DNA of 64,000 bases from Clostridiales bacterium (GCA_016278505.1 JADQBQ010000017.1:37357-101356), one strand, 5' to 3'; numbered from the stretch's first letter, positions 10,587-58,035 are shown. The notes: a model not told the origin generated them from the letters alone. Made by a program: numbers and translations.

Positions 10587-10630
10587 AGATTTCTAAATTA
10601 TATGTTAAGGTGACTATAAATCAGAACAAG

Positions 10631-10668
10631 AAAAGCGTGCTAAATCAGTTCCCTTAACGCGCGCTTTT
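10631..10668. repeat. repeat module C (hairpin gcgcg-taagggaactgatt-agcgc with A/T runs), copy 1
   Basis: Reverse complement matches 16780..16822 (gtgcgcgctaagggaactgattgagcgcac). Confidence 0.8.
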
Positions 10669-10687
10669 CAGTACTTTTTTCCTTTGT

Positions 10688-10727
10688 CCTTGCCATTTAT
10701 AAATGGCAAGGTATACTTTCCTAAAGT
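10688..10727. repeat. repeat module B (palindrome ccttgccat-N-atggcaagg plus tatactttcctaaagt), copy 1
   Basis: The same module occurs at 57525..57560 and, inverted, at 16726..16762. Confidence 0.85.
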
Positions 10728-10740
10728 GTAAAAAAATAAA

Positions 10741-13624: not shown

Positions 13625-15304
13625 CTACCCAATAAACATCTGCACAAACATCTTTCCGTAAGGACCGCCGTCAACTACTCCAATGCCCACTTGATCAAAA
13701 TTGTCATTTAATATGTTCCTCCGGTGGCCGGAAGAATTCATGAGATTGGTGTGGGCGGAAGAAACTGTTGGTGCCCCGGCCAGGTTTTCCCCGGCATAGC
13801 CGAACCTGATGCCAAACTGCCGCATCATATCAAAGGGTGAACCGTAAGTAGGTGAAGTATGCCCGAAATAACCCTTATCAATCATATCCCTGGCTTTTAC
13901 CCGCGCCACTTTGGCTACCTCCAGATTGGACTGCAGGGCCCCTACCCCCCGGCTTATACGTTCTTTATTGACCAGGCTAAGCATCTGCTTCTCGTCCGGA
14001 GTCAAGCCCTGGGTATCACCGGGGTTAGGCCGGGGATCGGGTTCAGGTTCTGGCTGCGGTTGCGGTGTAGGTTGAGGACTGGGTTCGGGCTGGGAATCAG
14101 GCTGGGGCACACTCCCACCGCCTTGACCGCGGATAAACATTTGGACAAAGTATTTGTAATAACCGTCATTAACAACTGCAATACCAACACGGTTAAAGTT
14201 TTCATTTAATATATTTGCCCTGTGCCCGGACGAATTCATCAACCCGTTATGGGCGGAATTAACGGAACCGGCTTTGGCCAGGTTTTCACCGGCATAGAAA
14301 TACTGCACCCCGGCACTGCGCATCATTGCAAAGGGTGAGCCATAAGTGGGAGATGTGTGGCTGAAATACCCCTTTTCTATCATATCCTGCGCCTTGAGCC
14401 GGCCCAGTCCAACCAGTGTAGCATCGGCCTTTAAAGGCTGTAGTCCCCTCTGCACACGTTCACGATTAACCAATTCCAACATTTGCCTCTCGCTGGCATT
14501 CATTATTGCCGTATCCCCGTTGTCAGCAGGGGGTGAGGGCTGCGGTTCAGGATCCGGCTTTGGTTGTGGATCTGGTGTTGGCTGGGGTTCCGGCTGTGGG
14601 TCAGGACGGTCCTCTTGAGGTCCATCTCCCACCAGAATTTGGACTATGTATTTTCGCTGCCCGTCATCCTGTACCGCTATACCAATAGCATCGTAGCGGG
14701 AGTCCAGCAGATCTTCACTGTGCGACTGATACCGCATTAACGCACGGTGAACAAGATTTACCGAAACAGATACCGAGGTGCGCGCAATTTTAGGCTTTAC
14801 ATAGCTGTACTCAAGACCTGCGTCATCCAGCATATCCCGGACATTTCCATAAGTGCGTGAATTGTAACTTAAGTAACCGTTTTCCACCATATCCTTAGCT
14901 TTTAGCTTTGCAATTTCGGTAATTTTCTCATCAAGGGCTAGACGGGATACCCCCGCTTCGACACGTGACTCGTTGATCAAGTCTGCCAGCTTACGTTCAT
15001 CCTGGTTTAGGGAAATTGAGCCTACCGCCACGGAAGGATCAGGCCCCAGCATTACATCTCCCGTTTCCAACTTGTCAAATTGTTTTTTTACGCTTGCTTC
15101 TTCCATCAACTGGTCGAGCTTCTGGTAAATTGGGAAATTATCAGATGCATCACCAGCTGCTTCATCTACCGGCAAAATCTCTACTTCCGGAGTTAATACT
15201 TTTTCCCCCGCTAGTACCGGTGAGGGCACAAAAACAAGGGTCACCATAAAAATTGCCGTCAACATTACCAACAAGCTAAATTGTTTTTTGTCAGTCTGCA
15301 CCAT
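13625..15304 (-). CDS. secreted protein with three CAP/SCP (YkwD-like) domains joined by Pro-rich linkers
   Basis: 559 aa with an N-terminal signal/TM segment. Three repeats contain the motif Y.(G/S)HTSPTYGSPF.MM....G......AGENLA......SAH..LMNSSGHR.NIL. The linkers read PDPQPEPQPTPDPQPKPDPEPQP and PQPDSQPEPSPQPTPQPQPEPEPDP. Confidence 0.8.
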   Translation of the reverse strand: MVQTDKKQFSLLVMLTAIFMVTLVFVPSPVLAGEKVLTPEVEILPVDEAAGDASDNFPIYQKLDQLMEEASVKKQFDKLETGDVMLGPDPSVAVGSISLNQDERKLADLINESRVEAGVSRLALDEKITEIAKLKAKDMVENGYLSYNSRTYGNVRDMLDDAGLEYSYVKPKIARTSVSVSVNLVHRALMRYQSHSEDLLDSRYDAIGIAVQDDGQRKYIVQILVGDGPQEDRPDPQPEPQPTPDPQPKPDPEPQPSPPADNGDTAIMNASERQMLELVNRERVQRGLQPLKADATLVGLGRLKAQDMIEKGYFSHTSPTYGSPFAMMRSAGVQYFYAGENLAKAGSVNSAHNGLMNSSGHRANILNENFNRVGIAVVNDGYYKYFVQMFIRGQGGGSVPQPDSQPEPSPQPTPQPQPEPEPDPRPNPGDTQGLTPDEKQMLSLVNKERISRGVGALQSNLEVAKVARVKARDMIDKGYFGHTSPTYGSPFDMMRQFGIRFGYAGENLAGAPTVSSAHTNLMNSSGHRRNILNDNFDQVGIGVVDGGPYGKMFVQMFIG

Positions 15305-15570: not shown

Positions 15571-15972
15571 TTAATTCAAAGCCAGCAATACAGCCCCCAA
15601 ACCCTGCGTAAGAGCAAGGCACTCAATATCGCCGCTGTTATCTAAGCAAAAAGAGGTGACCACAAAAAGCCTTTTTCTCAGCCCTTTACGAAACCTCATT
15701 AACATTAACTCATCCAGATTTTTTAAGGCTTCCAACCGAACCTCATTTCGCTTGAGCACAAGAGAGTACGTTCCCTCCGGCTGCTTGACAAATATTACAC
15801 TGCACCTGCTTTGACCGGATGTCAGGCCAAGGCGGTCAAAATCTACCAGATAATCATTGATCGCGCGCACAGCATCATCCCTGTTATTATAAAAGGGACC
15901 GATGGCCGGAATGTTGTCTCCTCCCAAAAAAACTAAAGCCACATCTTTTACCCGGTACACCCTTATACCCAT
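15571..15972 (-). CDS. hypothetical protein, last gene of the yabG / split-protease string
   Basis: 133-aa ORF with no motif I recognise. Same strand as, and 57 nt downstream of, the protease C-terminal segment, with its own terminator. Confidence 0.45.
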   Translation of the reverse strand: MGIRVYRVKDVALVFLGGDNIPAIGPFYNNRDDAVRAINDYLVDFDRLGLTSGQSRCSVIFVKQPEGTYSLVLKRNEVRLEALKNLDELMLMRFRKGLRKRLFVVTSFCLDNSGDIECLALTQGLGAVLLALN

Positions 15973-16028: not shown

Positions 16029-16595
16029 TTAAAAAGTCACTTTTAACCGTTTTAAAACATTGTCTATCCTGTTAAAAACGGAAAACTGGTCGGAACCGGC
16101 AAACACCAGGCCAACTGCCTCATTTTCGCGGTTTAGCATGAGTGACCCGCTATCACCGGGGTTGACTACACAATCTGAAACCACTTGATCGGAAAACCAA
16201 CCATACTCTTCCTTATCTAATTCCACTTTTAAGCTTACTCCCATGGCTGTTACTTCTCCTTCGGTGAGGCCGCTGGAGCGCCCGCTTTTTTGCACTATCA
16301 TTCCTACCTCCGGCTCGCCGGTACCAGCCACAGCCCCTAATTCCATAACTTCTCCGGCGATCAAATTAGGACTGTCAGGCTTTGCCACTGCAGCGTCAAT
16401 AATATTGCTTGACCGGGTATGTTTAACCAATCTCATTTCATAATTGCTGCGAATCAACTTGATTATCTTATTGCCCAGTTTTTGCGACCCCGCCGCTACC
16501 GGACAACTAGGCTCCTGCACGGAACGCTCCAAGGGAATAAATCTTTCCAACCTGGCGATGCGGTCTTTATTAGTACCGCCGTCGTAAGGGCCGGG
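16029..16595 (-). pseudogene. C-terminal segment of an interrupted trypsin-fold (S1-like) serine protease gene
   Basis: The frame is open from the TAA at 16596-16598 and reads PGPYDGGTNKDRIARLERF... It contains the catalytic Asp context NIIDAAVAK and the Ser motif NPGDSGSLM. There is no credible own start or RBS, since the ORF-track 'M' is an internal TTG. It continues the frame of 26555..26094 across a shared 15-bp core. Confidence 0.85.
16581..16595. repeat. 15-bp direct repeat / putative attachment-site core (left junction)
   Basis: GTCGTAAGGGCCGGG is identical to 26094..26108. It encodes PGPYD in the protease frame at both sites. Confidence 0.85.
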
Positions 16596-16686
16596 TTAGC
16601 ACACTATATTGGAAAGGGAATTTAAAACAAAGAAAAAATCCGGAGAAACAATCACCGGACCAGATGGTTAACAAAGCTGTGTAGTT

Positions 16687-16995
16687 AACCTGTCTTTTAC
16701 GCCCGCTCATTCATTTCATCTCGCACTTTAGTAAAGCATACCTTGCCATATATATGGCAAGGGCTACGGTGTAACGTATAAAAAAGTGCGCGCTAAGGGA
16801 ACTGATTGAGCGCACTTTTTTTACAGGCCAGGCTAGAGCTCAGTCTCACGCTCCAGCGGGGTTCCCGCCCCATCCGCCGTCCTGGCTCAGGGGGCGACCT
16901 CGCACGTCCTGTGCTCGGCCCCGCTTACACTTATCGACTTCGCTAAGCCTGGCAGCTGCTCGATTCAATTCATTTGCTCTGCGCAAAAGACAGGT
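16687..16995 (-). repeat. repeat family A copy 3 (inverted orientation) with a nested 100-bp insertion of modules B and C
   Basis: 16687-16725 and 16826-16995 are collinear with the reverse complement of 49199..49408. 16726-16825 is extra sequence made of module B (16726-16762) and module C (16780-16822). Confidence 0.85.
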
Positions 16996-17038
16996 TGGTC
17001 ATTAGTCTCGTCGGAGTAACAATCTCCGGATCTTCCTT

Positions 17039-18223
17039 CTAATTTTTCTCGCAGATTATTTTAGCAAGTTTCCTGCCGGTCTCTTTAACACTTTGCAGCT
17101 CATCGTCATCCGGGACATACTGAATATTGAGTAATTCGTGCGGAATTTCCCAATTCATATCCTTAAGAACCTCTTCTACATGTCGTGCTCCCTGGCCACC
17201 CCAACCGTAAGAGCCAAAAGCAAGTCCAATGCGGTTTTTGGGACGTAATCCCTTTACATAGGTTAGAAAACCGGCAACTGTGGGAAGCATACCGTTATTC
17301 AAAGTCGAGGACCCCACTAGAACAGCTTTGGATAGTAATACATCGGTCATTATCTCCGACATGTGGCTTGTTTGTAGAAAGCGGGTCGTAACCGGGATAC
17401 CGGCATCCTCCAGCCCGTTGGCCAGCGCGTTAGCGATTTCCTTGGTGGAACCCCACATGGTATCGTAAACAATAAGCGCCTTTTGGTCAGTTTCATGGTT
17501 TGCCCACTTAGGGTAAACTTCCAGAAGTTGTGGTATAAAAGACCGCCATATCACCCCGTGACTAGGGGCAATCATATCAATAGGTAATTGTCCCAGCACA
17601 TCCAAAGCTTTTTTTACCTGGTCCCCGTAAGGCAGGACAATATTAGCATAGTACGTGGCCGCCTCTTCATGGACTATGTCCCAACCCAGCTGATCATCGA
17701 AACGTTCCGTGCTGCCAATATGTTGCCCAAAGGCATCGTTGGGCAACAGCAGCTTGTCTTCAGGAATATAAGTAACCATGGAATCAGGCCAGTGAACCAT
17801 AGGGGTCTGCACAAACTTTAAAGTATGGGAACCCAGATTCATTTCATCACCGGACTTTATAATCTGATATTCCCACTCCTTTTTGTAGTGCCTTTCCAGC
17901 CCTTTTTTGCCCTTATCGGAGGTAATAATTTTAGCCTCCGGGGCAACTTCCATAATTTTGGGGACACTGCCGGAATGGTCCATCTCCACATGGTTTACTA
18001 CCAGATAATCAATTTTTGCCGGATCAATTATATCCTTTATACGCTCCAGCATTTCCTCAAAAAGATAGTGTTTTACGGTATCCACCAGGGTTATTTTATC
18101 ATCCACAATTAAGTACGCGTTATAAGTAGTACCCCGGGGAGTCAGATAACCATGAAAATAGCGAAGGTTCCAATCAATACCGCCCACCCAGTATATTTTT
18201 GGCTTAATTTCCACAGCCTTCAT
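17039..18223 (-). CDS. fprA: flavodiiron protein (FprA-type A flavoprotein; metallo-beta-lactamase-like plus flavodoxin domains)
   Basis: 394 aa. The di-iron motif HVEMDHSG sits in the N-terminal beta-lactamase-like domain and the C-terminal domain is flavodoxin-like (VYDTMWGSTKEIA). Confidence 0.9.
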   Translation of the reverse strand: MKAVEIKPKIYWVGGIDWNLRYFHGYLTPRGTTYNAYLIVDDKITLVDTVKHYLFEEMLERIKDIIDPAKIDYLVVNHVEMDHSGSVPKIMEVAPEAKIITSDKGKKGLERHYKKEWEYQIIKSGDEMNLGSHTLKFVQTPMVHWPDSMVTYIPEDKLLLPNDAFGQHIGSTERFDDQLGWDIVHEEAATYYANIVLPYGDQVKKALDVLGQLPIDMIAPSHGVIWRSFIPQLLEVYPKWANHETDQKALIVYDTMWGSTKEIANALANGLEDAGIPVTTRFLQTSHMSEIMTDVLLSKAVLVGSSTLNNGMLPTVAGFLTYVKGLRPKNRIGLAFGSYGWGGQGARHVEEVLKDMNWEIPHELLNIQYVPDDDELQSVKETGRKLAKIICEKN

Positions 18224-18267
18224 ATCCTTTTATCCTCCTTTCGCATTTTCTTTTTTACTTCTTAGCT

Positions 18268-18840
18268 TCAATAATTCTCGGCCATAATCTCATAAAAGCT
18301 CTGCGGGTGATCGCATGCGGGACATCTATCGGGCGCCCCGGTGCTCTCGTGTAAATACCCACAATTGCGGCATCTCCAGGTAACCTTTTGGTCACGCTTA
18401 AAAACTTTTCCCTGCTCAATATTTTCGATAAACTTTTTATACCGCTCTTCATGACCCACCTCTGCATTGGCGATGGCCCTAAAAACACCCGCAATTTTGG
18501 CAAAGCCCTCTTCCTCTGCTGTATTAGCAAATTCCGGATACATTATTTGGTGCTCGTGATTTTCCCCACCCACAGCAGCTTTTAAATTCTCCACCGTAGT
18601 ACCGATAAGTCCGGCCGGAAAAGATGTGGAAACCTCTACTTCTCCGCCTTCCAGAAATTTAAATAAGCGCTTAGCATGTTCTTTTTCATGATCCGCGGTT
18701 TCCAGGAATGCGGCTGATATTTGCTCATAACCTTCCTTTTTGGCAATACTGGCAAAATAAGTGTAACGGTTCCTGGCCTGTGACTCACCCGCAAAAGCAG
18801 TAAGTAAATTACGCTCTGTTTTAGTTCCCTTTAAAGTCAT
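18268..18840 (-). CDS. rbr: rubrerythrin
   Basis: 190 aa. Ferritin-like di-iron four-helix region with EGE.QA...Y and E..H motifs, plus a C-terminal rubredoxin-like WRCRNCG...CPAC. Confidence 0.95.
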   Translation of the reverse strand: MTLKGTKTERNLLTAFAGESQARNRYTYFASIAKKEGYEQISAAFLETADHEKEHAKRLFKFLEGGEVEVSTSFPAGLIGTTVENLKAAVGGENHEHQIMYPEFANTAEEEGFAKIAGVFRAIANAEVGHEERYKKFIENIEQGKVFKRDQKVTWRCRNCGYLHESTGAPDRCPACDHPQSFYEIMAENY

Positions 18841-18880
18841 TTTAATTTTCCCCCTTTAGAAACAGGCTCAAATATGAACC

Positions 18881-18895
18881 TTGTAATAATTATAA
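18881..18895. promoter_or_regulatory. PerR/Fur-family operator (PerR-box-like 7-1-7 palindrome)
   Basis: TTGTAATAATTATAA differs at one position from the B. subtilis PerR box TTATAATNATTATAA. It lies between the putative -10 and the rbr start codon. Confidence 0.55.
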
Positions 18896-18905
18896 GTTAG
18901 TAACT

Positions 18906-18933
18906 ATTATAATATAAATTCATAGCAAGTCAA
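18906..18933 (-). promoter_or_regulatory. sigma-A-type promoter for rbr-fprA
   Basis: On the minus strand: TTGACT, 16 nt, TATAAT. The PerR-like box follows 10 nt downstream. Confidence 0.5.
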
Positions 18934-19021
18934 TAGCATTACCAGTTTTTTTTATTACAATTTTACCTTCATACTATATGTAATTTGATTAAAGAATATA
19001 ATTTAACACCAGGATGACAAT

Positions 19022-19057
19022 AACTCAACAAAAGTGCCTGGCACCGTATGTTGAGTT
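19022..19057. repeat. small palindromic repeat (family F), copy 1
   Basis: aactcaacaaaagtgcctggcaccgtatgttgagtt matches the reverse complement of 49132..49172 (aataagtcaacaatcgtgcctggcacttttgttgacttatt). Confidence 0.7.
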
Positions 19058-19087
19058 AAAAAACCGAGCCGGTGTTAGCGGCTCGGT
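19058..19087 (-). terminator. intrinsic terminator of the ABC/aminotransferase/dehydrogenase operon
   Basis: accgagccg-ctaacac-cggctcggt hairpin followed by T6 on the minus strand, immediately after the TAA at 19088. Confidence 0.75.
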
Positions 19088-19879
19088 TTAGACTATATTA
19101 GCGGCTTTTATGCTTTCCTGTCTTATTAATTCCAACGCATGTCTTTTATAGGCCAGGAATTCCGGTTTATCCTTTATTTCATAATTCCGCGAGCGAGGTA
19201 AGTCAACCTTAATCTTTTCCTTGATACGGCCAGGTCTAGCTGTCATCACGTAAATAGTATCCCCAAGGAAAATGGCCTCTTCTACATCGTGGGTGACGAA
19301 CATTATCGTTTTCCGGGTTTCTTCCCATACATTGAGCAACAATTCCTGCATCAGGGTCCTTGTTTGGGCATCCAAAGCCCCAAAGGGCTCATCCATTAAC
19401 AATACTTCGGGTTCGTTGGCGAGGGCCCTAGCAATGGCTACCCGCTGCTTCATGCCACCACTCAGGTTCACCGGATAAACATTTTCGAACCCTGATAAAC
19501 CAATAAGTTCAAGGTAACGCCTGGCTTCCTTTTCCCTGGCATCCTTACCATTTTTTTTCAATTCCAGTCCAAATTCTATGTTTTTTTGCACGGTCAACCA
19601 CGGGAACAAAGTATAAGATTGAAAGACCATACCCCTTTCTGGCCCCGGTGATGTTATCATTTTCCCGTCCAGCAGAACTTTCCCGGAAGAAGGTGCAACC
19701 AGCCCGGCAACTACCCTCAATATTGTGGATTTACCACAGCCGGAAGGGCCTAATATAGTCACAAACTCCCCTTCCCGCACATCAAAAGTAGTCTCCTGCA
19801 GCGCGGTTACGTCCGTTTTCTTGGTCTTAAAGGTTTTAGAAACTGACTTTATTACTAATTTATTATCAGTACCGCTCAT
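19088..19879 (-). CDS. ABC transporter ATP-binding protein (nitrate/sulfonate/taurine NitT/TauT family)
   Basis: Walker A GPSGCGKST, signature LSGGMKQR, Walker B LLMDEPF. The ATG at 19879 (RBS ggaggg) overlaps the permease stop as TAATG. The ORF track extends to 19903. Confidence 0.9.
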   Translation of the reverse strand: MSGTDNKLVIKSVSKTFKTKKTDVTALQETTFDVREGEFVTILGPSGCGKSTILRVVAGLVAPSSGKVLLDGKMITSPGPERGMVFQSYTLFPWLTVQKNIEFGLELKKNGKDAREKEARRYLELIGLSGFENVYPVNLSGGMKQRVAIARALANEPEVLLMDEPFGALDAQTRTLMQELLLNVWEETRKTIMFVTHDVEEAIFLGDTIYVMTARPGRIKEKIKVDLPRSRNYEIKDKPEFLAYKRHALELIRQESIKAANIV

Positions 19880-20685
19880 TAAGTTCCCTCCTTGGTTAAC
19901 CACGGGAACATAACCCTATAAAGTATTTTAAAAAACAGGTCTGTAAACATGCCCAGGAGACCTATTACCAGGATGCCCACAAATATAACATCGGTATGTA
20001 AAAAGCGGCCGGCCTGAATAATCACATAACCCAAACCTGAATTAGCTCCCACCAGTTCAGCAACTATAAGATATGTCCACGCCCAGCCAAAACTGATGCG
20101 CAGTGTATCTATTATGCCGGGGAGTGAAGCAGGTAAGATAACCTTTTTAAAAGTATTGAGTTGTTTAGCCCCCAAAGTATAAGAGACCTCTACAAGTTCT
20201 CCCGATACATTTTTGGCCACATCCATAACCATCAAAGTTTGTTGAAAGAAAGTTCCCCAAAAAATAACCGTAATTTTTTCTGCTTCCCCGAGACCAATCC
20301 ATAAAATGAACAGGGGAATGAAAGCCGATGCCGGCATATAACGCACCGCCCCCATCAAGGGCTCAAAAAAGGCCCGCACTGAAGATAGCCTACCCATAAA
20401 CATACCCAGTGGCACCGCAATAATCGCAGAAAGACAGAAACCGACCGCTACCCTGGCGGTACTGATAAAAGCATGATGTAAAAGGTTGTCTCCTGCCGGG
20501 TCAGAAATCATTTGATAGGCTGTTTCAATAACTTGTACAGGGGTGGGTAAAAAAATATTTGATACCAGGCCTGAATATGCCAGTGCAGACCACGCCATCA
20601 ATATCAATGCAAAATTGATTATACCCAGGTAGCCATATTTTTCAGTTGTACCTTTTTTTAATGTATTCCTGATCGGTCCTTTCAT
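19879..20685 (-). CDS. ABC transporter permease (SsuC/TauC-like)
   Basis: 268 aa with about 6 TM helices and a BPD-type EAA-like loop. Translationally coupled to the ATPase gene. Confidence 0.85.
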   Translation of the reverse strand: MKGPIRNTLKKGTTEKYGYLGIINFALILMAWSALAYSGLVSNIFLPTPVQVIETAYQMISDPAGDNLLHHAFISTARVAVGFCLSAIIAVPLGMFMGRLSSVRAFFEPLMGAVRYMPASAFIPLFILWIGLGEAEKITVIFWGTFFQQTLMVMDVAKNVSGELVEVSYTLGAKQLNTFKKVILPASLPGIIDTLRISFGWAWTYLIVAELVGANSGLGYVIIQAGRFLHTDVIFVGILVIGLLGMFTDLFFKILYRVMFPWLTKEGT

Positions 20686-20765
20686 ACTTTCCCCCTCAAA
20701 AAAAAGGAAGTCGGTCCTTCATCCCGTCTCCAAAGGGGGGACATGCCCCCCTTGACAACCCACAA

Positions 20766-21782
20766 CTATTTGGAAACACTCTCCAGGTAGCTGCTGTCAA
20801 TCATTTTTGCCGTGTCCGGTCTTGCACTGATAATACCTTTTTCCACGTAAAAATCAGCAGCCCTGTTTAATGTTTCCTTAATGTCACCTTTAAAAAGTTG
20901 AATATTTTCCTGGTAATTGTACAGCTTTATCCCGTTAAGAAAATTTTCTGTTTCCATGCTTAAGCCCTCAGCCATAATTTTGACTGCTTCCTCCTGGTTC
21001 TCCTCATAATAGTCCATGGCCTTAACCAGGCCATTCACCATAGCCTGCATTTCTTCCGGATGAGTGTCGGCAAAATCCTTGCGGAATGCCAGTGCATCCA
21101 AAATCAGACCCGGTGTTTCCTTGGACGTAATTAATAAATGGCCGTTCCCTTCCTCTACTCCCTTGGTCAGCCAGGGTTCCCAGGTTACTGCTGCATCTAC
21201 ATTTCCTGCCACAAAAGCAGCACCGGCATCCCCGGAGGAACTAACCGGGACTATGTTTATATCGTCTTCTCCAAGGCCCGCCTTTTCCAGGGCCGTGAGC
21301 AGGAAAATGTGGCTGGTGGTACCCACATCAAGGGCCACACTCTTTCCTTTCATATCGGCCAATTCTTTTATATCATTGGAAGCTAAGATACCGTCCCCAC
21401 CGTAAGAGGTGTCCAGGGCCCAAATAATGGATACCGGGACTCCTGCATCTTCTAATGTGGCTTCAATGTCCAGCGTAGTAGCCATGCCGTCCACCTTGTT
21501 ACCCGCGAGTGCCTGCTTGCGCTCCGCAAGGCCCTGGATAATTGTAATTTCCACATCCTCCAGACCTTCTTCTGCAAAAAACCCTTTATCCCGGGCCAGG
21601 AAAAGCGGGCCGTATCCGGGCCACGTAGTCAAAGTAATGCTAACCTTGTCCAACTTTTGTCCATCTTCACCGCTTTGATTGTTTTCCGCATCAGGTTCTT
21701 CTCCGCCTCCACAGCCGGTAAGGGAAATTATTAACCCTAAAACCAGCATGAGAACAAGAACTTTAAGAGCACGCCCCCTCAA
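20766..21782 (-). CDS. ABC transporter substrate-binding lipoprotein (NMT1/THI5-SsuA/TauA-like)
   Basis: 338 aa with a signal peptide and lipobox LTGC. Periplasmic-binding fold of the NitT/TauT family. Substrate unknown. Confidence 0.8.
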   Translation of the reverse strand: MRGRALKVLVLMLVLGLIISLTGCGGGEEPDAENNQSGEDGQKLDKVSITLTTWPGYGPLFLARDKGFFAEEGLEDVEITIIQGLAERKQALAGNKVDGMATTLDIEATLEDAGVPVSIIWALDTSYGGDGILASNDIKELADMKGKSVALDVGTTSHIFLLTALEKAGLGEDDINIVPVSSSGDAGAAFVAGNVDAAVTWEPWLTKGVEEGNGHLLITSKETPGLILDALAFRKDFADTHPEEMQAMVNGLVKAMDYYEENQEEAVKIMAEGLSMETENFLNGIKLYNYQENIQLFKGDIKETLNRAADFYVEKGIISARPDTAKMIDSSYLESVSK

Positions 21783-21877
21783 AAAAACATACCTCCCAAT
21801 CAGTTAATAATTTATCTTGTTAAAGTGTTCGACGCAAAACGACATTCCCCTGCCAGCTGAAGGGAAATTGTAAATTT

Positions 21878-22993
21878 TTATACAACTACTCCCATTATTT
21901 CCCGCAGAGCACTGATAAACTCCCGGTTGGCTTCCTGGCTCCCAACACTTACACGCATAAAACCAGGCGCCCCGAATTGAGCACCAGGTCTGACTACAAT
22001 ACCCCGCTGAACTAATTTTTCATAGATTATACCGGCTTCACAACCGGTATTTATAAAGAGAAAATTGGCACAAGACGGCACGAAGTTCATACCCATACGA
22101 TTAATTTCTTCCTCCAAATATTGCCGCTGGGCATCGTTTATACTGCGCATATCTTCCACATATTTCCTATCCCTTAATGCCGCCAGCGCACCTGCCTGGG
22201 CTAATCCGTTTACATTAAAAGGTGGCCTTACCTTGTGCACGACACAGACTGTTTCTTTGCCGGCAATTAAGTAACCTACTCTGGCCCCGGCCAGGCCATA
22301 TATCTTGGAAAAAGTGCGAATAACCCCTATGTTCGGAAATTCATTGATAAGATTGATTGCCGTTAATCTCTTCGGGTTCGGTGTAAATTCCATATAGGCT
22401 TCATCAAACATTACTATCACATGCGAAGGGATTTTACTTAAAAACCTTTGTACTTTTGCGGGTTCAAGCATTGTACCGGTGGGATTATTGGGATTGCAAA
22501 TATATATCAACTTAACTTTATCGTCAACTTCGGACAGCATAGCGTCCAAATCCACCGTATAATCAAGCAGCGGCACGGGCATCGGCTCTGCACCCACCAT
22601 ACGGGCTGCCACGGCGTAAGCACCGAAAGAAGGGGACGGAAAAATGACCCTGTCCCCAGGGCCGGCAAAAGTCTGCGCCACTAAGTTTATCATTTCATCG
22701 GCCCCATTACTTAAAAGTAAATTCGTATTTTCAACACCGAATTCCCCGGCCAGTGCTCCTGAAAGTTCTACACTGTAAGAAGAAGGATAGAAATTCACTT
22801 TGTCAGCGGCCTCTCGCATAGCTTTTACCGCAGCCGACGAAGGGCCGTTAAAATTCTCATTAAATGACAATTTATATACATTATCCAGTCCTAGTCTCTC
22901 TTTTATTTCCCCCACCGATAAATCCGGTAATTCCTGTGGAAAAGGCTTTATTTGCTTTATGTTGGGCCTAACCGATTCTTGTATAGATTTCAT
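21878..22993 (-). CDS. histidinol-phosphate-aminotransferase-family (class II) PLP aminotransferase
   Basis: 371 aa. Motifs LSFNEN..GPS, NPNNPTG and RTFSKIYGLAGARVGY (PLP lysine). It is not in a his operon, so the physiological substrate is uncertain. Confidence 0.8.
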   Translation of the reverse strand: MKSIQESVRPNIKQIKPFPQELPDLSVGEIKERLGLDNVYKLSFNENFNGPSSAAVKAMREAADKVNFYPSSYSVELSGALAGEFGVENTNLLLSNGADEMINLVAQTFAGPGDRVIFPSPSFGAYAVAARMVGAEPMPVPLLDYTVDLDAMLSEVDDKVKLIYICNPNNPTGTMLEPAKVQRFLSKIPSHVIVMFDEAYMEFTPNPKRLTAINLINEFPNIGVIRTFSKIYGLAGARVGYLIAGKETVCVVHKVRPPFNVNGLAQAGALAALRDRKYVEDMRSINDAQRQYLEEEINRMGMNFVPSCANFLFINTGCEAGIIYEKLVQRGIVVRPGAQFGAPGFMRVSVGSQEANREFISALREIMGVVV

Positions 22994-23036
22994 TTGTAAT
23001 ATCCTTTCAACCGGTAATGATTATGCAACGAAAAAC

Positions 23037-24119
23037 TTATCCTAAACATGTACGGCCTACTTTGTCAGCGGCAAGAATAGCTTTCTCCACCATGCCCGGA
23101 GTCACTTTAAAGGGCATGTTGTTCATGTCTTCCGCGTCTACTGCTCCTTTTCCCACCAGGGCTAACTCTTTTTCCGACGGATCAATTACCCCCAGTTGCT
23201 TTAAAGTAACCGGAAGCCCCATGGGAACGAGCCTTGCAGCCAAATCTTGAGCATCGTGTAAACGCTCTTCCAACATCAGTTGGCCGAGAATGCCAAAAGC
23301 GACCGTTTCACCATGATACATTTGGTGCACATGGGGAAGATAGGTTAGCCCCGAATATATGGCATGGGCACCGGCAGTTCGGCATTGATCCCCGCCCAAA
23401 CCACTGACCATGCCGCTTAACATGATGATTGCGTCAATTACCTGATCCAGCGCAAAAGAAACCGTTTTATTTTGAACACTGTGCACCGCATCTTCTCCAT
23501 GCTCCAACAAAACCTGCCGACACAGCAGAGCTGTTTCCCTGGCGGCAAAAATTACAGCACTTTTTAAATTGCGTGAGGTGGTATCCACTTCATACCATTT
23601 GGCCAGGGTGTCTCCCACTCCGGCTGCCAACAGCCGCACCGGGGCTGCCGCAATAGTGGATGAATCCACCAGTACAGCCGCAGGAGTTTGGGCCTGGGGG
23701 GATAACTCCATAAATACACCTTCATCCGTATATGTAACCGAGAGAGGAGTCCAGGGTGCACATGTAGCAGCAATGGTGGGTACGGTAATCACAGGCTTGT
23801 CCAGTTGAAAGGCAACAGCCTTGGCTGTGTCCAGCGCCTTACCGCCTCCAACACCTATTATTATGTTTGTGCTGCTATCAATTTCCCGCACCAGGCTTTG
23901 AACATTGGACGGAGAGCATTCCCCCCCGTACCAGTGCACACCGCTCACGTTAATCCCTTTTGTCCTGCACCCACTTAAGATCCGGTCCTTGGCTACGGCC
24001 AGAGCAGTGTTGCCACCTACCAGTGCCACTACATTACCTTCTCCGCCGCAGTAATCGCCCACCCGGCCTAAAATCCCCGGCTCTCTCACATAGATACCAG
24101 GGGAAATTTTTCTATGCAT
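23037..24119 (-). CDS. iron-containing alcohol dehydrogenase family, glycerol-dehydrogenase-like
   Basis: 360 aa. GGGKALDTAKAVA nucleotide-binding motif, PTIAATCAPWTP, and His-rich metal site (H..Y.....HG). Confidence 0.8.
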   Translation of the reverse strand: MHRKISPGIYVREPGILGRVGDYCGGEGNVVALVGGNTALAVAKDRILSGCRTKGINVSGVHWYGGECSPSNVQSLVREIDSSTNIIIGVGGGKALDTAKAVAFQLDKPVITVPTIAATCAPWTPLSVTYTDEGVFMELSPQAQTPAAVLVDSSTIAAAPVRLLAAGVGDTLAKWYEVDTTSRNLKSAVIFAARETALLCRQVLLEHGEDAVHSVQNKTVSFALDQVIDAIIMLSGMVSGLGGDQCRTAGAHAIYSGLTYLPHVHQMYHGETVAFGILGQLMLEERLHDAQDLAARLVPMGLPVTLKQLGVIDPSEKELALVGKGAVDAEDMNNMPFKVTPGMVEKAILAADKVGRTCLG

Positions 24120-24209
24120 AAATTTGACCTCCCAAGTTGATCTTTATCTATGGTCTATCTCACCATAATTCGACACCGCATAAACCATTCCTTCCATCTA
24201 CCAATCCAT

Positions 24210-25841
24210 CTACCAATCAAGGTTATAAATTAGTATGAGTCTACTTTCATCCTGCTCCATGGCATGCAGATGCTTACCGGATAACATTTGCAAACTATGC
24301 TTGCCCCATATATTTTGGTGTATTGTATCACCCTTTTCCAGGACAATAATCTTTTTCATATAGTTCTCCAGCAATACTCGATCGACATCTTCCGTATTTA
24401 ACAATTCCGCGCTCAAAGTATTCAATAACTCGTTAACATCTGTATCTTTGGACACAGTGGTTGCTTGGTCGTATTGCTTTTGTATACGGTGTTTTAACAG
24501 CCCTATTTCGCCTTTTATAGCATCAACTGCCGCCAAATAAATCTGCTCTGAAATTATTCCCCGCACCCTATCCATGTAGGCAATCTGCAGTTGCCGGTTT
24601 CGCCGGGCAACCTCATTTTCTATTCGTTCAATGTTTGTATCTGAATTCTTTAGCCCACTGCTTTCTTGCCGGTATTTTTCGATTAACTGTTGCTGAAAGG
24701 AAATACCTTTTGCCATGTACTTAATGTCTCTAATTATATAGTCAGCCAGTGTTTTTTCATTAATATAATGGCTGGAGCAACCTTTCCGGCCAAACCTGTT
24801 GTACTGCCCACAAATATAACCCGCCGCCCCGCTTCTTTTCTTGCGGTATGTATGATTGCTTCCACAGGCTGCGCAAACTAAAAAACCGGTAAAAAGGTGA
24901 GGCTCGGCCTGGCCCTTCCTTTTCCTTCCCTGACCTTCCCGGCATCTTTTTTCCCGTATCTGCTGGGCAAGGGCAAAAGTTTCCCGGCTAATCACAGGTT
25001 GGTGAGTATCTGCAACCACAATCCACCTTTCACTGTCAAGTCGCCTGGTTTTCTTGGATTTAAAAGAAACCTTTTCACTCACCCCCTGCACAGTATCTCC
25101 GCAGTATACCCTATTCTTAATGATGCGGCGGATGTGCTGTTCGTTCCACCTCCTGGCCTGAGCAGCACCGGCATAACCTTTGTCCTGACTTGGCGTGGGG
25201 ATACCCATACTCTGAACATATTCAGCTAGGGCCCTATAACCCCACCCGCTTATATATAAGTCAAATATTTCACCAATAATATCTTTATAACGCTCATCCA
25301 CTACAAGTTTATTTTTCTGCTGCCCCGATTTTAAATAACCAAAAGGGGGTCGCCCTAAAAATTGCCCGTTTTGCATCTTCTTTCTTAAATTATAACGCAC
25401 CTTTTTTGATATATCCCGTGCATAATGCTCATTGACCCAGGTTCTAATGCCAATAGTGTCATCATCATCTCTAAAACTGTCATAATTATCTCCCAGTGCA
25501 ATTAATCGAATATCCTTTTCTCTTAAAAAATCTAAGAATGTTAGCGTTTCCCCGTTATTTCTCCCCAACCGGGATAAATCCTTCACGAGAACAGTATTAA
25601 CGCTGCCTTCATTGATGTCTTTTACCAACTGTATCAATCCCGGCCGGTCAAAACAGGTACCCGATATATCACTGTCCACGTAAAAGCCAAAAGCCCCCAG
25701 TTCATATTGCTCTACGAAACTTTGAAGCAATTGGCATTGTGTTTCCAAACTTTCATCTCTCTCACCATTTTCGTTCACGCTCAGCCGGGCATATATAGCC
25801 ACCCTGCCGCTGTTATCCACGGAACTCTCGTTGAAGGTCAT
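24210..25841 (-). CDS. large serine recombinase (SpoIVCA/CisA/SprA-like)
   Basis: 543 aa. N-terminal resolvase catalytic domain (VAIYARLSV with the nucleophile Ser, plus VLVKDLSRLGRN), a recombinase domain, a Cys-rich zinc ribbon (CAACGS...YICGQYNRFGRKGCSSH) and a C-terminal coiled coil. Confidence 0.95.
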   Translation of the reverse strand: MTFNESSVDNSGRVAIYARLSVNENGERDESLETQCQLLQSFVEQYELGAFGFYVDSDISGTCFDRPGLIQLVKDINEGSVNTVLVKDLSRLGRNNGETLTFLDFLREKDIRLIALGDNYDSFRDDDDTIGIRTWVNEHYARDISKKVRYNLRKKMQNGQFLGRPPFGYLKSGQQKNKLVVDERYKDIIGEIFDLYISGWGYRALAEYVQSMGIPTPSQDKGYAGAAQARRWNEQHIRRIIKNRVYCGDTVQGVSEKVSFKSKKTRRLDSERWIVVADTHQPVISRETFALAQQIREKRCREGQGRKRKGQAEPHLFTGFLVCAACGSNHTYRKKRSGAAGYICGQYNRFGRKGCSSHYINEKTLADYIIRDIKYMAKGISFQQQLIEKYRQESSGLKNSDTNIERIENEVARRNRQLQIAYMDRVRGIISEQIYLAAVDAIKGEIGLLKHRIQKQYDQATTVSKDTDVNELLNTLSAELLNTEDVDRVLLENYMKKIIVLEKGDTIHQNIWGKHSLQMLSGKHLHAMEQDESRLILIYNLDW

Positions 25842-25870
25842 GTTAAAACCTCCCTGGCCAGCTAACTGTT

Positions 25871-25990
25871 TTAATCTTCCCTACCAATTTTCTCTATTAG
25901 CTTTTTATACATTAAGAATACAATCATATCTTGGACTTTGTTATCTCCGGCTAAAATTATTACATGCCCACCCTTTTGAATAACTTGCAC
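25871..25990 (-). CDS. 39-aa ORF immediately upstream of the recombinase gene, below the ORF-track cutoff
   Basis: GTG start preceded by GGAGGTG at 6-nt spacing. Sequence VQVIQKGGHVIILAGDNKVQDMIVFLMYKKLIEKIGRED. The stop lies 29 nt before the recombinase ATG. No recognisable homology by eye. Confidence 0.3.
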   Translation of the reverse strand: MQVIQKGGHVIILAGDNKVQDMIVFLMYKKLIEKIGRED

Positions 25991-26075
25991 CTAAAACACC
26001 TCCATCATAATATATGCCTGCCGGAACAGAGTCATATATTGTCCACTGTACTTTTGTGAAGGTAAATAGTGACGT

Positions 26076-26555
26076 TTATAAGTTCAGTATAGAGTCGTAA
26101 GGGCCGGGCTGTAATATGGGATCGCCTATTTTAGCACGACCATCCTGCCCGTTGGAGCCGTTTGCTAAAATATGATTATTGGAAAGAATTAATGAATTGC
26201 CGGTTTCAATATCCTTTACCACTGCACCAAAAGTTCCGGCGGAAATTTTATAATGTCCGATACTTACCCCGGGATGGGCAGGGCGGTGACGTTCCTGCCT
26301 TGTGCCCAAGAGCCTGACCTTCCCTATTTCAATAACATCGGTTTCAAAACCGCTTACCTTTTTAGGTACTATTTCAGTTCTGGAGAGATTCTCCTTCTTT
26401 TCCTTTTTTTCCACAAACACTATCAAAGCAGGACTGTCGGTACGCTGCATATTCCGGTGTTTTAAACCTATACCTAAACCGCAAACATTAGGGAATGTTA
26501 TTAGCCTGGATCTGTGTTTTTGCAATGCTTTATAGAATTTATCGAAATTATCCAT
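26076..26555 (-). pseudogene. N-terminal segment of the interrupted trypsin-fold serine protease gene
   Basis: 159-aa ORF with RBS aaggaggggg. It contains the catalytic His context LILSNNHILANG. After ...ILQPGPYD (the core) it runs only 5 codons (SILNL*) into the element. Confidence 0.85.
26094..26108. repeat. 15-bp direct repeat / putative attachment-site core (right junction)
   Basis: GTCGTAAGGGCCGGG is identical to 16581..16595. Confidence 0.85.
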
Positions 26556-26618
26556 AAAACCCCCTCCTTATTATCTTCAAGCCATCATATGCATCCGGGG
26601 AAGAAACGGTTACCTGTC

Positions 26619-27539
26619 TTAATAGGGTGACCGGGGAACCCCTAATCTATATTTGCCACGGGTTTCTAACCCTCCGATACCATCAAAACCGGTTATCGTT
26701 GACGCAATTATATCTCGCAAAGATATGGGGTCATAAATGGAAGTAAAAGCGACCCTTTCCACCACAAAAACCGGATCGTACGCATGTATTAGTACCCTTT
26801 GCGGTGAACTGGCAAAATTGGCACCGGCCTCTAAAATAGCTTCATAATGAGATTGACAGGCACCGGCAAATATCACCAAATCATCCCTGCTCTTTTCATA
26901 TTTTCGGGCCTCTTTCACCGCCTTAACAAAATAACCTGAACTATGGTAATTAGTAATATCAGTAAAATCCTTTAAATCCTTTATAAAACCGTCGTGACCG
27001 GTTAAGACCAAAAAATCAGGACTGTGCAGCCGGAGCAACTCACGTACCTTTTGGGGTTGTTCCCTTTCGGGAATAAAATAGCCATGAACAGGAACATTCA
27101 GCTGTCTATAGGTAGCCAAACACAAATCTAGGTATTCCCCGTCACCATCTATATGAAGTACGGAACCGGGCACATCAAAGCTGTCCAGGTCACTAACTTG
27201 AGAGGGGTCTTCCTGGGATGCCCTTAAAAGAAATTTTTTGCGCTCATGCGTTCGCCGAATAAGAAGTCTCTGCAGTGTCTGGCTGTTTTCGGCAATACGT
27301 TGCCGCCAGTATTCGTTAACTTTTGATCCGTCAATTTTTTCCAGGTCCTCAATAGGTGCAGTTGCACACAGCCTGATATCAACACCCTTCAATCTGGCAT
27401 ACCGGTTTGCCTCATTATCTTCTATCAATTCAACAACTTTAAAATAGACATCAAAGTTGTACGACCTACGCCCTACCACATCACCCGGCTTAATTGTGCT
27501 CATTTCCTTCAACCTCTCTCCGTCACTCAGTTCATTCAT
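26619..27539 (-). CDS. yabG: sporulation-specific protease YabG
   Basis: 306 aa. The N-terminal segment (IKPGDVVGRRSYNFDVYFKV) and the conserved C-terminal region (LVLTGHDG......NYHSS.YFV.AV..AR........LVIFAGACQSHYE.I..AGANFASSP) resemble YabG as recalled. Located near ksgA as in Bacillus. Confidence 0.9.
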   Translation of the reverse strand: MNELSDGERLKEMSTIKPGDVVGRRSYNFDVYFKVVELIEDNEANRYARLKGVDIRLCATAPIEDLEKIDGSKVNEYWRQRIAENSQTLQRLLIRRTHERKKFLLRASQEDPSQVSDLDSFDVPGSVLHIDGDGEYLDLCLATYRQLNVPVHGYFIPEREQPQKVRELLRLHSPDFLVLTGHDGFIKDLKDFTDITNYHSSGYFVKAVKEARKYEKSRDDLVIFAGACQSHYEAILEAGANFASSPQRVLIHAYDPVFVVERVAFTSIYDPISLRDIIASTITGFDGIGGLETRGKYRLGVPRSPY

Positions 27540-49172: not shown

Positions 49173-49198
49173 GCGGGTTACGATCTAGGCTAATGATA

Positions 49199-49408
49199 AA
49201 CCTGGCTTTTGCGCAGAGCGAATGAATTGAATCGAGCCGTGGCCAGGCTTAGCGAAGTCGATAAGCGAAAGCGGGGCCGAGCACAGGACGTGCGAGGCCG
49301 CCCCTTGAGCCAGGACGGCGAATGGGGCGGGTACCCCGCTGGAGCGTGAGACTGAGCCTTAGCCTGGCCCGGCGAGATGAATGAATGAGCGGGCGCATAA
49401 GACAGGTT
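49199..49408 (+). repeat. repeat family A, copy 1 (uninterrupted ~210-bp GC-rich multi-hairpin element)
   Basis: Termini aacctggcttttgcgcagagcgaatgaattgaatcgag ... gcgagatgaatgaatgagcgggcgcataagacaggtt form an imperfect terminal inverted repeat. Internal pairings include ccaggcttagc/gccttagcctgg, agcgggg/ccccgct and ccgcccc/ggggcgg. Copies lie at 57679..57972 and, inverted, at 16687..16995. Confidence 0.9.
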
Positions 49409-56535: not shown

Positions 56536-56806
56536 AAGCCGTGCACCCACCTTCGAATGATGGCTTCCGGGCGTTACTCCAGCAGGTAGCTCGAGTCAGG
56601 CACCCTCGCGGCACCCGGAGGGACTTCCTTAGTGCTGCTTCCGTCAGGATCTGACACAGTTCAGAAGACTCCGTCGCGCAAGACCCGGCCGTCAACACCC
56701 CTTACAGGAGCCGGACCCCACAAGCCAAACCCTCCGGCAGGAATTCGGCCCTGCTATAGCGGATTGCAGGTTCAGGGCACCGCTACCTCCCCACCTAGCA
56801 CGGCAA
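56536..56806 (-). ncRNA. ffs: signal recognition particle RNA, large Bacillus type with Alu domain (scRNA)
   Basis: The minus strand reads GCCGUGCUAGGUGGGGAGGUAGCGGUGCCCUGAACCUGCAAUCCGCUAUAGCAGGGCCGAAU...GUCAGAUCCUGACGGAAGCAGCACUAAGG...GGUGGGUGCACGGC. This resembles B. subtilis scRNA as recalled, including the domain IV GGAAGCAGC motif. It sits just upstream of dnaX, and a hairpin plus T-run follows at about 56493-56530. The ends are good to about 5 nt. Confidence 0.9.
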
Positions 56807-56821
56807 ATATAAAAATAAAAA

Positions 56822-56916
56822 TGGCGGAGAGAGAGGGATTCGAACCCTCGAGACGATTTCAGTACCGCCTACTCGCTTTCCAGGCGAGCGCCTTCAGCCA
56901 ACTCGGCCATCTCTCC
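56822..56916 (-). tRNA. tRNA-Ser (anticodon GGA)
   Basis: GGAGAGAUGGCCGAGUUGGCUGAAGGCGCUCGCCUGGAAAGCGAGUAGGCGGUACUGAAAUCGUCUCGAGGGUUCGAAUCCCUCUCUCUCCGCCA. It has a 7-bp acceptor stem, anticodon loop CU-GGA-AA, a long class II variable arm, a GGTTCGAAT T-loop and an encoded CCA. Confidence 0.95.
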
Positions 56917-57376: not shown

Positions 57377-57477
57377 TTAATTAATACCTCCTTATTTCTA
57401 GTGTTAACCTTTTGTCCTTAATTAATAAGCCAATATTGAAAAATCGCCACAAAAAAATGAATTAATAAAATAACTAA

Positions 57478-57972
57478 GACCAATGACGACCTTACTTTTG
57501 CGCACAGCGAATAAATTGAATCGATTGCCATATATATGGCAAGGTATACTTTCCTAAAGTACGAGATGAAGTGAACTCGCTCAGTTAAAGCTGAACATCG
57601 GAGCTAAAGAGAGACTCCCACTTCTAGAAGTGGGAGTCTTAAGAATCAGATTAAGATGTAATTTTAGACCAATGACGACCCTGTCTTTTGCGCAGAGCGA
57701 ATGAATTGAATCGAGCAACTGCCAGGCTTAGCGAAGTCGATAAGCGGAAGCGGGACCGAGCACAGGACGTGCGAGGCCGCCCCCTGAGCCAGGACGGCGG
57801 ACGGCAATGGCATTAAGACTGTTTTCTGAATAGTAACTTTTATCTATGCCATTGCGGAAACAGCTGGTCTTAATTAGGAAGCTTAGTAATTTGGGAATCC
57901 CGCTGGAGCGTGAGACTGAGCTTTAGCCTGGCCTGCGAGATGAAATGAATGAGCGGGCGCAAAAGACAGGTT
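57478..57972 (+). repeat. ~500-bp composite repeat array: partial A (57478-57524), module B (57525-57560), module D (57561-57643), and full A copy 2 (57679-57972) carrying a ~99-bp apical insertion
   Basis: Each block matches other loci: A = 49199..49408, B = 10688..10727, D = 28496..28577. In A copy 2, 57800-57898 replaces the 13-nt apical sequence aatggggcgggta of copy 1 and contains its own inverted repeat ggcaatggcat/atgccattgc. Confidence 0.85.
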
Positions 57973-58035
57973 AGAAAAACTAAATTTTCAAGCCCGCAGG
58001 TTCATCAGTATGAGTTAGTTTATACCTTTAGCATT

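Follow-up and report, generated by a model that had tools for sequence, protein, structure and literature searches.

Recombinase-bearing elements split a Nal1-type protease gene beside yabG in Desulfotomaculales, a gene very probably rebuilt by DNA excision

What becomes of a conserved gene when an element is inserted in the middle of it and both halves stay intact? The question is raised by a stretch of 64,000 nucleotides (nt) from a Clostridiales bacterium (GCA_016278505.1, JADQBQ010000017.1:37357-101356; the whole stretch is called the window here), in which a serine protease gene located directly after the sporulation gene yabG is cut in two by a 9.5-kb element carrying a large serine recombinase. 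An initial annotation, made from the sequence alone, had read this as the skin- and SPbeta-type architecture of spore formers, a reading now supported by nine further loci, by the symmetry of the attachment (att) sites, and by SprA of SPbeta as the closest solved relative of the recombinase. The element sits exactly in a conserved gene, which its relatives cut at an identical codon in at least six genera; very probably, therefore, we are dealing with a new case of a gene that DNA excision restores, with sporulation as the most likely occasion. The interrupted sporulation genes on record are sigK (skin), spsM (SPbeta), spoVFB (vfbin), spoVR (vrin), gerE (gin), and yabG (yin) (PMC4191935, PMC5595907, PMC10747680). 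The literature searched makes no mention of this protease gene or of Desulfotomaculales as the host of such an element, in agreement with the annotation, which knew of none described in this gene.

A protease gene in two halves

The insertion parts the catalytic His, found in one fragment, from the Asp and Ser, found in the other, 9.5 kb away (Table 1), and an active enzyme cannot be made from either of them. The split position is after the His and before the Asp, within the most conserved motif of the protease, GDPILQPGPYDGG. Residues 1 to 154 of the 5' fragment belong to the protease, and its short tail, SILNL followed by a stop codon, comes from element sequence, the C-terminal end reading ...ILQPGPYDSILNL before the stop (in longer context, ...GDPILQPGPYDSILNL). 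At the other junction, a TAA on the element side abuts the repeat and closes the frame, and reading then continues PGPYDGGTNKDRIARLERF... to the stop. Both junctions are marked by the 15-mer GTCGTAAGGGCCGGG, a direct repeat with only two copies in the window, for which 100 shuffles gave 0 occurrences; the identity ends at 15 bp on both flanks. In silico removal of 9,513 bp (one repeat and 9,498 unique bases) leaves a single open reading frame (ORF) of 337 amino acids (aa), ...ILQPGPYDGGTNKDRIARLERF..., with the complete triad. Reading of the ORFs and of the repeat thus agreed with the initial annotation on every point: the exact coordinates of the repeat, the two halves on the same strand, the tail, the closing TAA, and the 337-aa product of the deletion. 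The recombinase, a small ORF preceding it, and the 5' (N-terminal) fragment are present as identical proteins in independent JGI, NCBI, and Logan assemblies, so the arrangement is no assembly artefact.

When the rejoined protein was compared to 5.8 billion protein clusters, 5,470 matches were found. The best 120 of them were nearly all uninterrupted proteins of 330 to 340 aa, with a query coverage of 93 to 99% (mostly 99%), and the named ones among these 120 came mostly from Desulfotomaculales (Desulfotomaculum, Desulfofundulus, Desulfoscipio, Sporotomaculum, and others). The closest uninterrupted orthologue has 81% identity. The lack of any homologue collinear across the PGPYD codons of the junction had been named by the annotation as the sign that the fragments are unrelated genes; the orthologues of 333 to 335 aa align end to end and are collinear there, at 99% coverage, with the columns of His (SNNH), Asp (NIIDAAV), and Ser (GDSGS) invariant. 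The 81% relative has an empty site in a neighborhood identical to that of the window, with the gene order metS, tatD, cobO, yabE-like, ksgA, RNaseH-like, a divergent glycosyltransferase, yabG, the protease, a 133-aa ORF, a YkwD/CAP-domain gene, and two sipL-like genes.

The split gene encodes a Nal1-type serine protease of the chymotrypsin fold (S1). The rejoined protein matches Pfam NAL1_N with 31.4 bits, above the cutoff of 27, with Nal1_C and Trypsin_2 slightly under threshold. An AlphaFold model of the orthologue P0001 (mean predicted local distance difference test score [pLDDT] of 83) has rice NARROW LEAF 1 (NAL1) as its top structural match (E value of 2e-14, template modeling [TM] score of 0.63), followed by the Streptomyces griseus protease and alpha-lytic protease.

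Table 1. Features of the split protease locus, in window coordinates
Feature	Coordinates	Strand	Description
yabG, sporulation peptidase U57	26619..27539	minus	Directly upstream of the split gene; TIGR02855 343.8 bits (cutoff 270.4)
Sigma-K-like promoter of the protease gene	26584..26610	minus	AC-N17-CATATGAT in the 66-nt yabG-protease spacer
5' protease fragment	26076..26555	minus	159-aa ORF; NAL1_N domain; catalytic His in SNNH
Repeat copy joining the 5' fragment (attL, gene orientation)	26094..26108		CCCGG core (gene strand) 26104-26108; predicted crossover GG inside
Promoter-like module of the small ORF	26008..26044	minus	GGACAA 26044-26039, 22 nt, CATATATTA 26016-26008
Conserved small ORF, 39 aa	25871..25990	minus	GTG start; GGAGGTG ribosome-binding site; 29 nt upstream of the recombinase
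Large serine recombinase, 543 aa	24210..25841	minus	Resolvase, Recombinase, Zn_ribbon_recom domains
Fe-containing alcohol dehydrogenase family protein, cargo	23037..24119	minus	
Class I/II aminotransferase, cargo	21878..22993	minus	
ATP-binding cassette (ABC) transporter, cargo	19088..21782	minus	NMT1/THI5-like binding protein 20766-21782, permease 19879-20685, ATPase 19088-19903
Rubrerythrin, cargo	18268..18840	minus	Strong sigma-70-type promoter match 18933-18906
Flavodiiron protein, cargo	17039..18223	minus	Metallo-beta-lactamase-like ODP domain and flavodoxin
Unique element body	16596..26093		9,498 bases; with one 15-bp repeat, 9,513-bp excisable unit
Repeat copy joining the 3' fragment (attR, gene orientation)	16581..16595		Shared core 16591-16595
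3' protease fragment	16029..16595	minus	Frame opens at the repeat (PGPYDGG...); Asp (NIIDAAV), Ser (GDSGS); stop 16029-16031
attB, rejoined junction (predicted)			ATCCCATATTACAGCCCGGCCCTTACGACGGCGGTACTAATAAAG
attP, circular junction (predicted)			CCAATATAGTGTGCTAACCCGGCCCTTACGACTCTATACTGAAC

One gene and one site in a family of elements

Ten loci were informative, belonging to at least six genera of spore-forming Desulfotomaculales: the window, Desulfofarcimen acetoxidans DSM 771 (L087), Desulfallas sp. Bu1-1 (L088), Desulfoscipio geothermicus (L089), Desulfotruncus alcoholivorax (L090), Pelotomaculum isophthalicicum JI (L091), two metagenome contigs (L092 and L093), a strain whose recombinase shares 92% identity with that of the window (L094), and a metagenome contig found as a further complete example by the small-ORF motif scan described below (L097). 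In 10 of 10, a recombinase of one clade lies inside the same protease gene next to yabG, and in all loci the protease gene comes after yabG and before the YkwD-family and sipL genes. All visible junctions place the insertion at one position, the GG dinucleotide in the QPG codons of the motif, with N-terminal fragments ending in ...GDPILQPG plus a few element-encoded codons and C-terminal fragments starting with ...QPGPYDGG. All seven loci with both halves (the window and six others) rejoin in silico into ORFs of 333 to 337 aa with an invariant triad. Measured from core to core, the elements span 3,027 to 9,513 bp; the left junctions of D. acetoxidans and Desulfallas were not found within the flank covered. 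The module formed by the small ORF and the recombinase is always oriented as the protease gene but may be located at either end of the element (C-fragment end in seven loci, N-fragment end in the window, L094, and L092); cargo therefore builds up on either side of a minimal unit consisting of att, small ORF, recombinase, and att.

Two loci deserve separate mention. In L094 (2133-2726), the stop of the element-encoded N-fragment tail has been lost, and the ORF extends to 197 to 198 aa, overlapping the small ORF; the 198-aa form is on record as a "hypothetical protein" (MTI83358.1). In D. acetoxidans (CP001720, 200849-210809), the 10 kb that precedes the small ORF and recombinase contains genes for thymidylate synthase, an IS605 OrfB/Cas12f-like protein, aspartate ammonia-lyase, and HydE/HydG/HydF-like hydrogenase maturation proteins, with no 5' protease fragment within that 10 kb (L087 1-9961). 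Such an arrangement implies an element far longer than 10 kb, or else a rearranged locus.

Attachment sites

The identity between the junctions, 15 bp in the window, is 5 to 9 bp in the other elements, and the core common to the family is CCCGG (gene strand). When the two element ends were joined, the reconstructed attP sites of seven elements were dyad symmetric at 12 to 17 of 20 positions (in D. alcoholivorax, for example, TTCAATATAGGGT...ACCCTATATTGAA), and the symmetry axis always fell between the two G's of CCCGG. Serine integrases usually have their crossover dinucleotide at the symmetry center (PMC5595907). From this rule and the position of the axis, the crossover dinucleotide is therefore GG. 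The repeat of the window is longer because of a coincidence, the inner part of its element arm (CCCTTACGAC) having the sequence of the gene arm; the functional core is GG within CCCGG, and the 15-bp identity is peculiar to the lineage of the window.

The recombinase and its small partner

The initial annotation had placed a 543-aa large serine recombinase about 250 bp inside the right end of the element. Its ATG is indeed 252 bp inside the right repeat, and Pfam detected the Resolvase, Recombinase, and Zn ribbon domains (E values of 9e-24, 7.5e-25, and 2.3e-12, respectively), with Y17, R19, and S21 invariant in the clade alignment. SprA of SPbeta is the best solved relative (residues 32 to 473, E value of 8e-19), and XisF is the best NCBIfam match (132.6 bits, far under the family cutoff of 375). 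The clade comprises about 38 protein clusters with 53 to 67% identity, all from Desulfotomaculales, after which the next relatives drop to 43%. A recombinase of this sister clade (43% identity) occupies another conserved site, next to rpoN and apgM (L098), and the same context recurs in L008 and L010; target specificity is therefore a property of the clade that splits the protease gene. A scan of genome contigs with the clade alignment gave relatives of 28 to 39% identity (L007-L086), with no clade member among the matches listed, the conserved peptides also matching distant recombinases.

The sister-clade loci (39 to 43% identity) are L098 4474-8974, L008 9078-12759, and L010 8390-12754, all with the sigma-54 gene rpoN on one side, an apgM-like gene for phosphoglycerate mutase on the other, and a gene for 5-formyl-tetrahydrofolate cyclo-ligase nearby. 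The L098 element carries apparently little or no cargo, and the rpoN-like ORF of L010, of only 353 aa, may be truncated by the insertion.

Every element has the small ORF, which outside the window encodes 50 to 65 aa and precedes the recombinase by 20 to 40 nt at the start of the module. The motif H[IV]xxLxGxxK[IV]xDM[IL]VFLxYRKL forms its core. The small ORFs gave no credible Pfam match, and the motif had 0 matches in 2.9 million viral contigs. A profile search found 39 clusters of the small protein in the whole database, none of them named, a number matching the size of the recombinase clade. Scanning metagenome contigs with the back-translated motif retrieved three loci and missed contigs known to carry it, so this collection is incomplete for such a search. 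A precedent for so small a partner is found in the gin element, whose directionality factor GirX has 42 aa (PMC5595907), and the small ORF is a likely candidate for a recombination directionality factor.

Variable cargo

Only the recombinase and the small ORF are common to all elements, while the cargo varies. Phage-type genes are absent from the cargo, in the window as in eight relatives, and the seven cargo genes of the window are metabolic, transport, or stress genes, with no relaxase or coupling protein among the genes of its element. D. geothermicus shares with it the Fe-containing alcohol dehydrogenase, the aminotransferase, and the NMT1-type ABC transporter (62 to 83% protein identity); rubrerythrin and the flavodiiron protein are found only in the window, and a HEPN/nucleotidyltransferase pair is found only in D. 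geothermicus. D. alcoholivorax carries a helix-turn-helix (HTH) regulator, a TraG-like coupling protein (TraG-D_C), and a Replic_Relax relaxase, and the other elements carry a single dehydrogenase, a nitroreductase, or an acyltransferase and a prenyltransferase.

The cargo block shared by the window and D. geothermicus is more alike than their recombinases (58%) or YabG proteins (65%), and, with attP as the reference point, the recombinase module flanks the cargo on one side in the window and on the other in D. geothermicus (window 24120-24209; L089 2830-3094 and 11641-11690), so that either cargo blocks were exchanged between elements or the module moved.

Inside the element there is also a repeat of about 180 nt (16826-17008), with a GC content of 66% versus 45% for the window, a strong secondary structure (minimum free energy [MFE] of -78.8 kcal/mol for 170 nt), and inverted repeats at its termini (CAGGCCAGGCT...AGCCTGGC). 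Two more full-length copies (49187-49369 and 57666-57804) lie between genes, 91 to 93% identical and in the opposite orientation, and fragments are found at 57477-57575, 57893-57973, and 10628-10728. Rfam gave no match across the element and none for this repeat, which looks like a miniature inverted-repeat transposable element (MITE) or repetitive extragenic palindromic (REP)-type repeat, or a small RNA family outside Rfam, that also landed in the element.

Promoter motifs

Sigma-K promoters have AC at -35 and CATA at -10. The spacer between yabG and the protease gene carries AC-N17-CATAnnnT in five of eight cases, with or without an element (shuffle P values of 0.002 to 0.007 per spacer), and a GCATAnnATG box in all eight. 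A similar motif precedes yabG, and the sipL genes of these genomes have a near-perfect GCACA-N16-CATAtatTA. In Clostridioides difficile, yabG is sigma-K dependent (PMC3789822).

The small ORF is preceded by GGACA[AG] in 10 of 11 sequences, often just 3' of terminator-like hairpins. This is followed after 22 nt by CATAT in seven sequences (the window included) and after about 11 nt by GAATAA in three, and both types of module are at a fixed distance from the ribosome-binding site. The -10 of the small ORF, CATATATTA, also serves unchanged as the -10 of the conserved sipL promoter in these genomes. The sequence recognized by SpoIIID, TAGGACAAGC, has GGACAA as its core (PMC11180830), and the Bacillus subtilis skin recombinase gene spoIVCA is activated by SpoIIID and sigma-E (PMC517825). 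As judged from these motifs, mother-cell control of the operon formed by the small ORF and the recombinase seems likely. Both sigma-E (ATA-N16-CATA) and sigma-K (AC-N16/17-CATA) were tried for this promoter, which was assigned to neither because the spacing fits neither canonical form.

Selection and mobility

Neither stops nor frameshifts were found in eight N-halves and nine C-halves. Between the window and L094, both interrupted alike, the ratio of nonsynonymous to synonymous rates (dN/dS) of the N-half is 0.088 (15.5 nonsynonymous and 37.5 synonymous differences), compared to 0.082 for yabG and 0.17 for the recombinase; for the C-half, the ratio is 0.107 (L088 versus L089). The N-half thus evolves under purifying selection. 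Among the 5.8 billion protein clusters, there was no empty-site allele above 81% identity for the species of the window. Together, these observations fit a regularly rebuilt gene and not a dead one.

The elements are younger than their hosts, i.e., less diverged, as the synonymous divergence (dS) of the recombinase is 0.39 between L088 and L089 versus 1.2 to 1.7 for the flanking host genes, and 0.23 between the window and L094 versus 0.32 to 0.52 for the flanking genes. They therefore also move horizontally. Purely vertical inheritance was considered and rejected, since the identities of recombinase and YabG correlate with an r of only 0.66 and the element dS is far under that of the flanks in one pair (L088/L089).

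Neighboring genes

After the protease gene, every locus has an ORF of 129 to 140 aa (133 aa in the window, 15571-15972, minus strand; 41 to 82% identity) without a Pfam or NCBIfam match, which is likely cotranscribed with the protease and may be its partner, inhibitor, or substrate. Downstream, next to two sipL-like genes, there is a conserved 559-aa protein (13625-15304, minus strand) with three YkwD/CAP domains (TIGR02909, in three stretches) separated by long Pro-rich PxPxP linkers. The window also contains housekeeping RNAs on the minus strand, a large bacterial signal recognition particle (SRP) RNA (56539-56803, 205 bits) and an adjoining tRNA (56825-56916).

Comparison to known intervening elements

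Architecture and inferred mechanism match those of sporulation-gene intervening elements. The nearest analogue is gin, which interrupts gerE in Bacillus cereus ATCC 10987 and encodes GirC and the small GirX (PMC5595907). Like the elements described here, gin is of nonphage nature, interrupts a small and conserved stretch of coding sequence, and encodes a large serine recombinase together with a tiny orphan protein; its att sites share a short core centered in an imperfect inverted repeat, and related elements are found in several strains, likely by horizontal spread. The target gene, the host order (Desulfotomaculales versus Bacillales), and the recombinase clade are different. Unlike in gin, the small ORF here is immediately upstream of a single recombinase, in one apparent operon, for which a role in excision and directionality is predicted.

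The skin elements (sigK, SpoIVCA; B. subtilis, C. difficile, and others) resemble this family in their very different sizes (2.6 to 48 kb, versus 3.0 to 9.5 kb here), with only the recombinase shared, in the location of the recombinase at the element edge, described for skin in 15 genomes (Galperin et al., bioRxiv 10.1101/2022.02.25.481979), and in their presence in several genera; the upstream GGACAA also recalls the SpoIIID control of spoIVCA (PMC517825). However, the target here is a protease rather than a sigma factor, there are no phage genes, and for at least one pair the elements proved younger than the hosts. The likeness to SPbeta (spsM; SprA and SprB; PMC4191935, PMC5499854) lies, in addition to the kinship with SprA, in the logic, for the present elements a proposed one, of an integrase and a small directionality factor that rebuild a late mother-cell gene while the element is still mobile. 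SPbeta is, in contrast, an active phage of 134 kb in which sprA is constitutive and sprB alone is under sporulation control, whereas the present elements are nonviral and have the two genes adjacent. The yin element of Clostridium botulinum V73 (PMC10747680) occupies the same chromosomal locus, with a large serine recombinase and ends marked by a 14-bp repeat, but it is a prophage known from a single strain that splits yabG itself, whereas here yabG is intact, the next gene is split, and many genera are involved. Finally, XisF excises the fdxN element of Anabaena to restore a gene in a terminally differentiated cell, although the match of our recombinase to XisF is far under the cutoff and the host cell is a cyanobacterial heterocyst, not a sporulating cell.

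Proposed mechanism and alternative explanations

We have high confidence that this is an excision-competent serine-integrase element that splits a functional gene. The whole mechanism, in which the operon of the small ORF and the recombinase brings about excision in the mother cell with the small protein as directionality factor, is held with less assurance, although we consider it probable. The recombinase has joined a dyad-symmetric attP to attB in the Q-P-G codons of GDPILQPGPYDGG. In the scheme proposed, the element would be kept integrated in growing cells and in the forespore chromosome, where its cargo would be expressed (oxygen-detoxifying flavodiiron protein and rubrerythrin, ABC transporter, aminotransferase, and alcohol dehydrogenase). 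With the small protein acting as directionality factor, the recombinase would cut the element out at the central GG; a precise reaction between attL and attR restores the 337-aa ORF. The rebuilt protease gene would then be transcribed from its sigma-K-like promoter, while the spore would inherit the interrupted copy. The same recombinase also serves the horizontal spread of the element, given that divergence is lower among the elements than among their hosts and that genes for a relaxase and coupling protein are present in one relative (L090). In the window, the 5' fragment is followed immediately, without an intervening terminator, by the cassette of small ORF and recombinase. One may speculate, although we find it rather doubtful, that the pair is a host-tamed, self-contained gene-rebuilding cassette, with the orphan 39- to 65-aa protein as a new family of directionality factors; sigma-K read-through from the split gene, in the arrangement of the window, would trigger its own repair, and the cargo (oxygen defense, transport) would be kept in the germ line chromosome only and lost from the mother cell.

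Several observations weigh against mother-cell excision. The promoter of the small ORF lacks an AC 16 to 17 nt before the -10 and has ATA at 18 nt, where sigma-E expects 16; GGACAA is 22 (or 11) nt before the -10, and D. acetoxidans has no GGACAA at all. A weak sigma-70 match, ATGACT-17-TATTAT, overlaps the module, although it is no commoner than expected by chance, and the support for these promoters is at the level of motifs. If the small ORF is the directionality factor, its constant cotranscription with the recombinase would leave integration in a new host without a clear route, and horizontal transfer implies that some insertions may be recent, in which case intact halves are weaker evidence. 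Lastly, an exact look-up of five rejoined proteins (from the window, three isolates, and one metagenome-assembled genome) in a collection of 15 billion proteins found none of them, which is the result to be expected were the joined form confined to a minority of cells, namely the mother cells.

Some of these points would suit an ordinary integrative (mobilizable) island for which the protease gene is a landing site that is simply inactivated, any excision serving transfer rather than development. The elements are clearly mobile between lineages, one of them with a relaxase and coupling protein, the cargo consists of accessory metabolic and stress genes, no excised allele appears in the assemblies, and the weak sigma-70-type match precedes the small ORF. 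A landing site of this kind is difficult to reconcile with halves that are intact at all 10 loci with an invariant triad, with an N-half dN/dS between interrupted strains no higher than that of yabG, with databases that hold no empty-site allele of the window's species, and with a recombinase module bearing a conserved set of motifs not of sigma-70 type, and so we regard it as unlikely. Descent from a defective prophage, as proposed for skin, is the least probable of the explanations, and we give it very little credence: skin-type elements are thought to be phage derived (PMC4191935) and SprA is a phage integrase, but the cargo has no phage-type gene, the small-ORF motif is unmatched among the viral contigs, and minimal elements are of about 3 kb.

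The split gene might also be a switch that answers another cue, such as oxygen or nutrient stress, with excision, in part of the population, turning the protease on and shedding the cargo, in the manner of "active lysogeny" switches. The link of rubrerythrin and the flavodiiron protein to oxidative stress speaks for such a switch, as does yin of C. botulinum, whose excised and integrated forms occur together at all time points (PMC10747680). However, the cargo cannot define the trigger because it differs completely between family members, and the gene neighborhood and CATA-type promoters point to the mother-cell program, which makes a different cue quite improbable. Excision that rebuilds the protease gene, most likely in sporulation, is thus the explanation that we favor.

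Significance

For annotation, these genomes carry a warning, since two "hypothetical" fragments and a "recombinase family protein" belong together. The compact integrase and its putative directionality factor, with attB and attP defined to about 45 to 50 bp, may serve as a genome-engineering pair. For the biology of the group, the protease would be the seventh target gene among sporulation-locus genes with excisable elements and the first in the strictly anaerobic Desulfotomaculales. The Nal1-type protease beside yabG is a probable late spore-maturation enzyme, hitherto uncharacterized, and its interruption is a family-wide phenomenon, with one recombinase clade, one codon, many genera, and interchangeable cargo.

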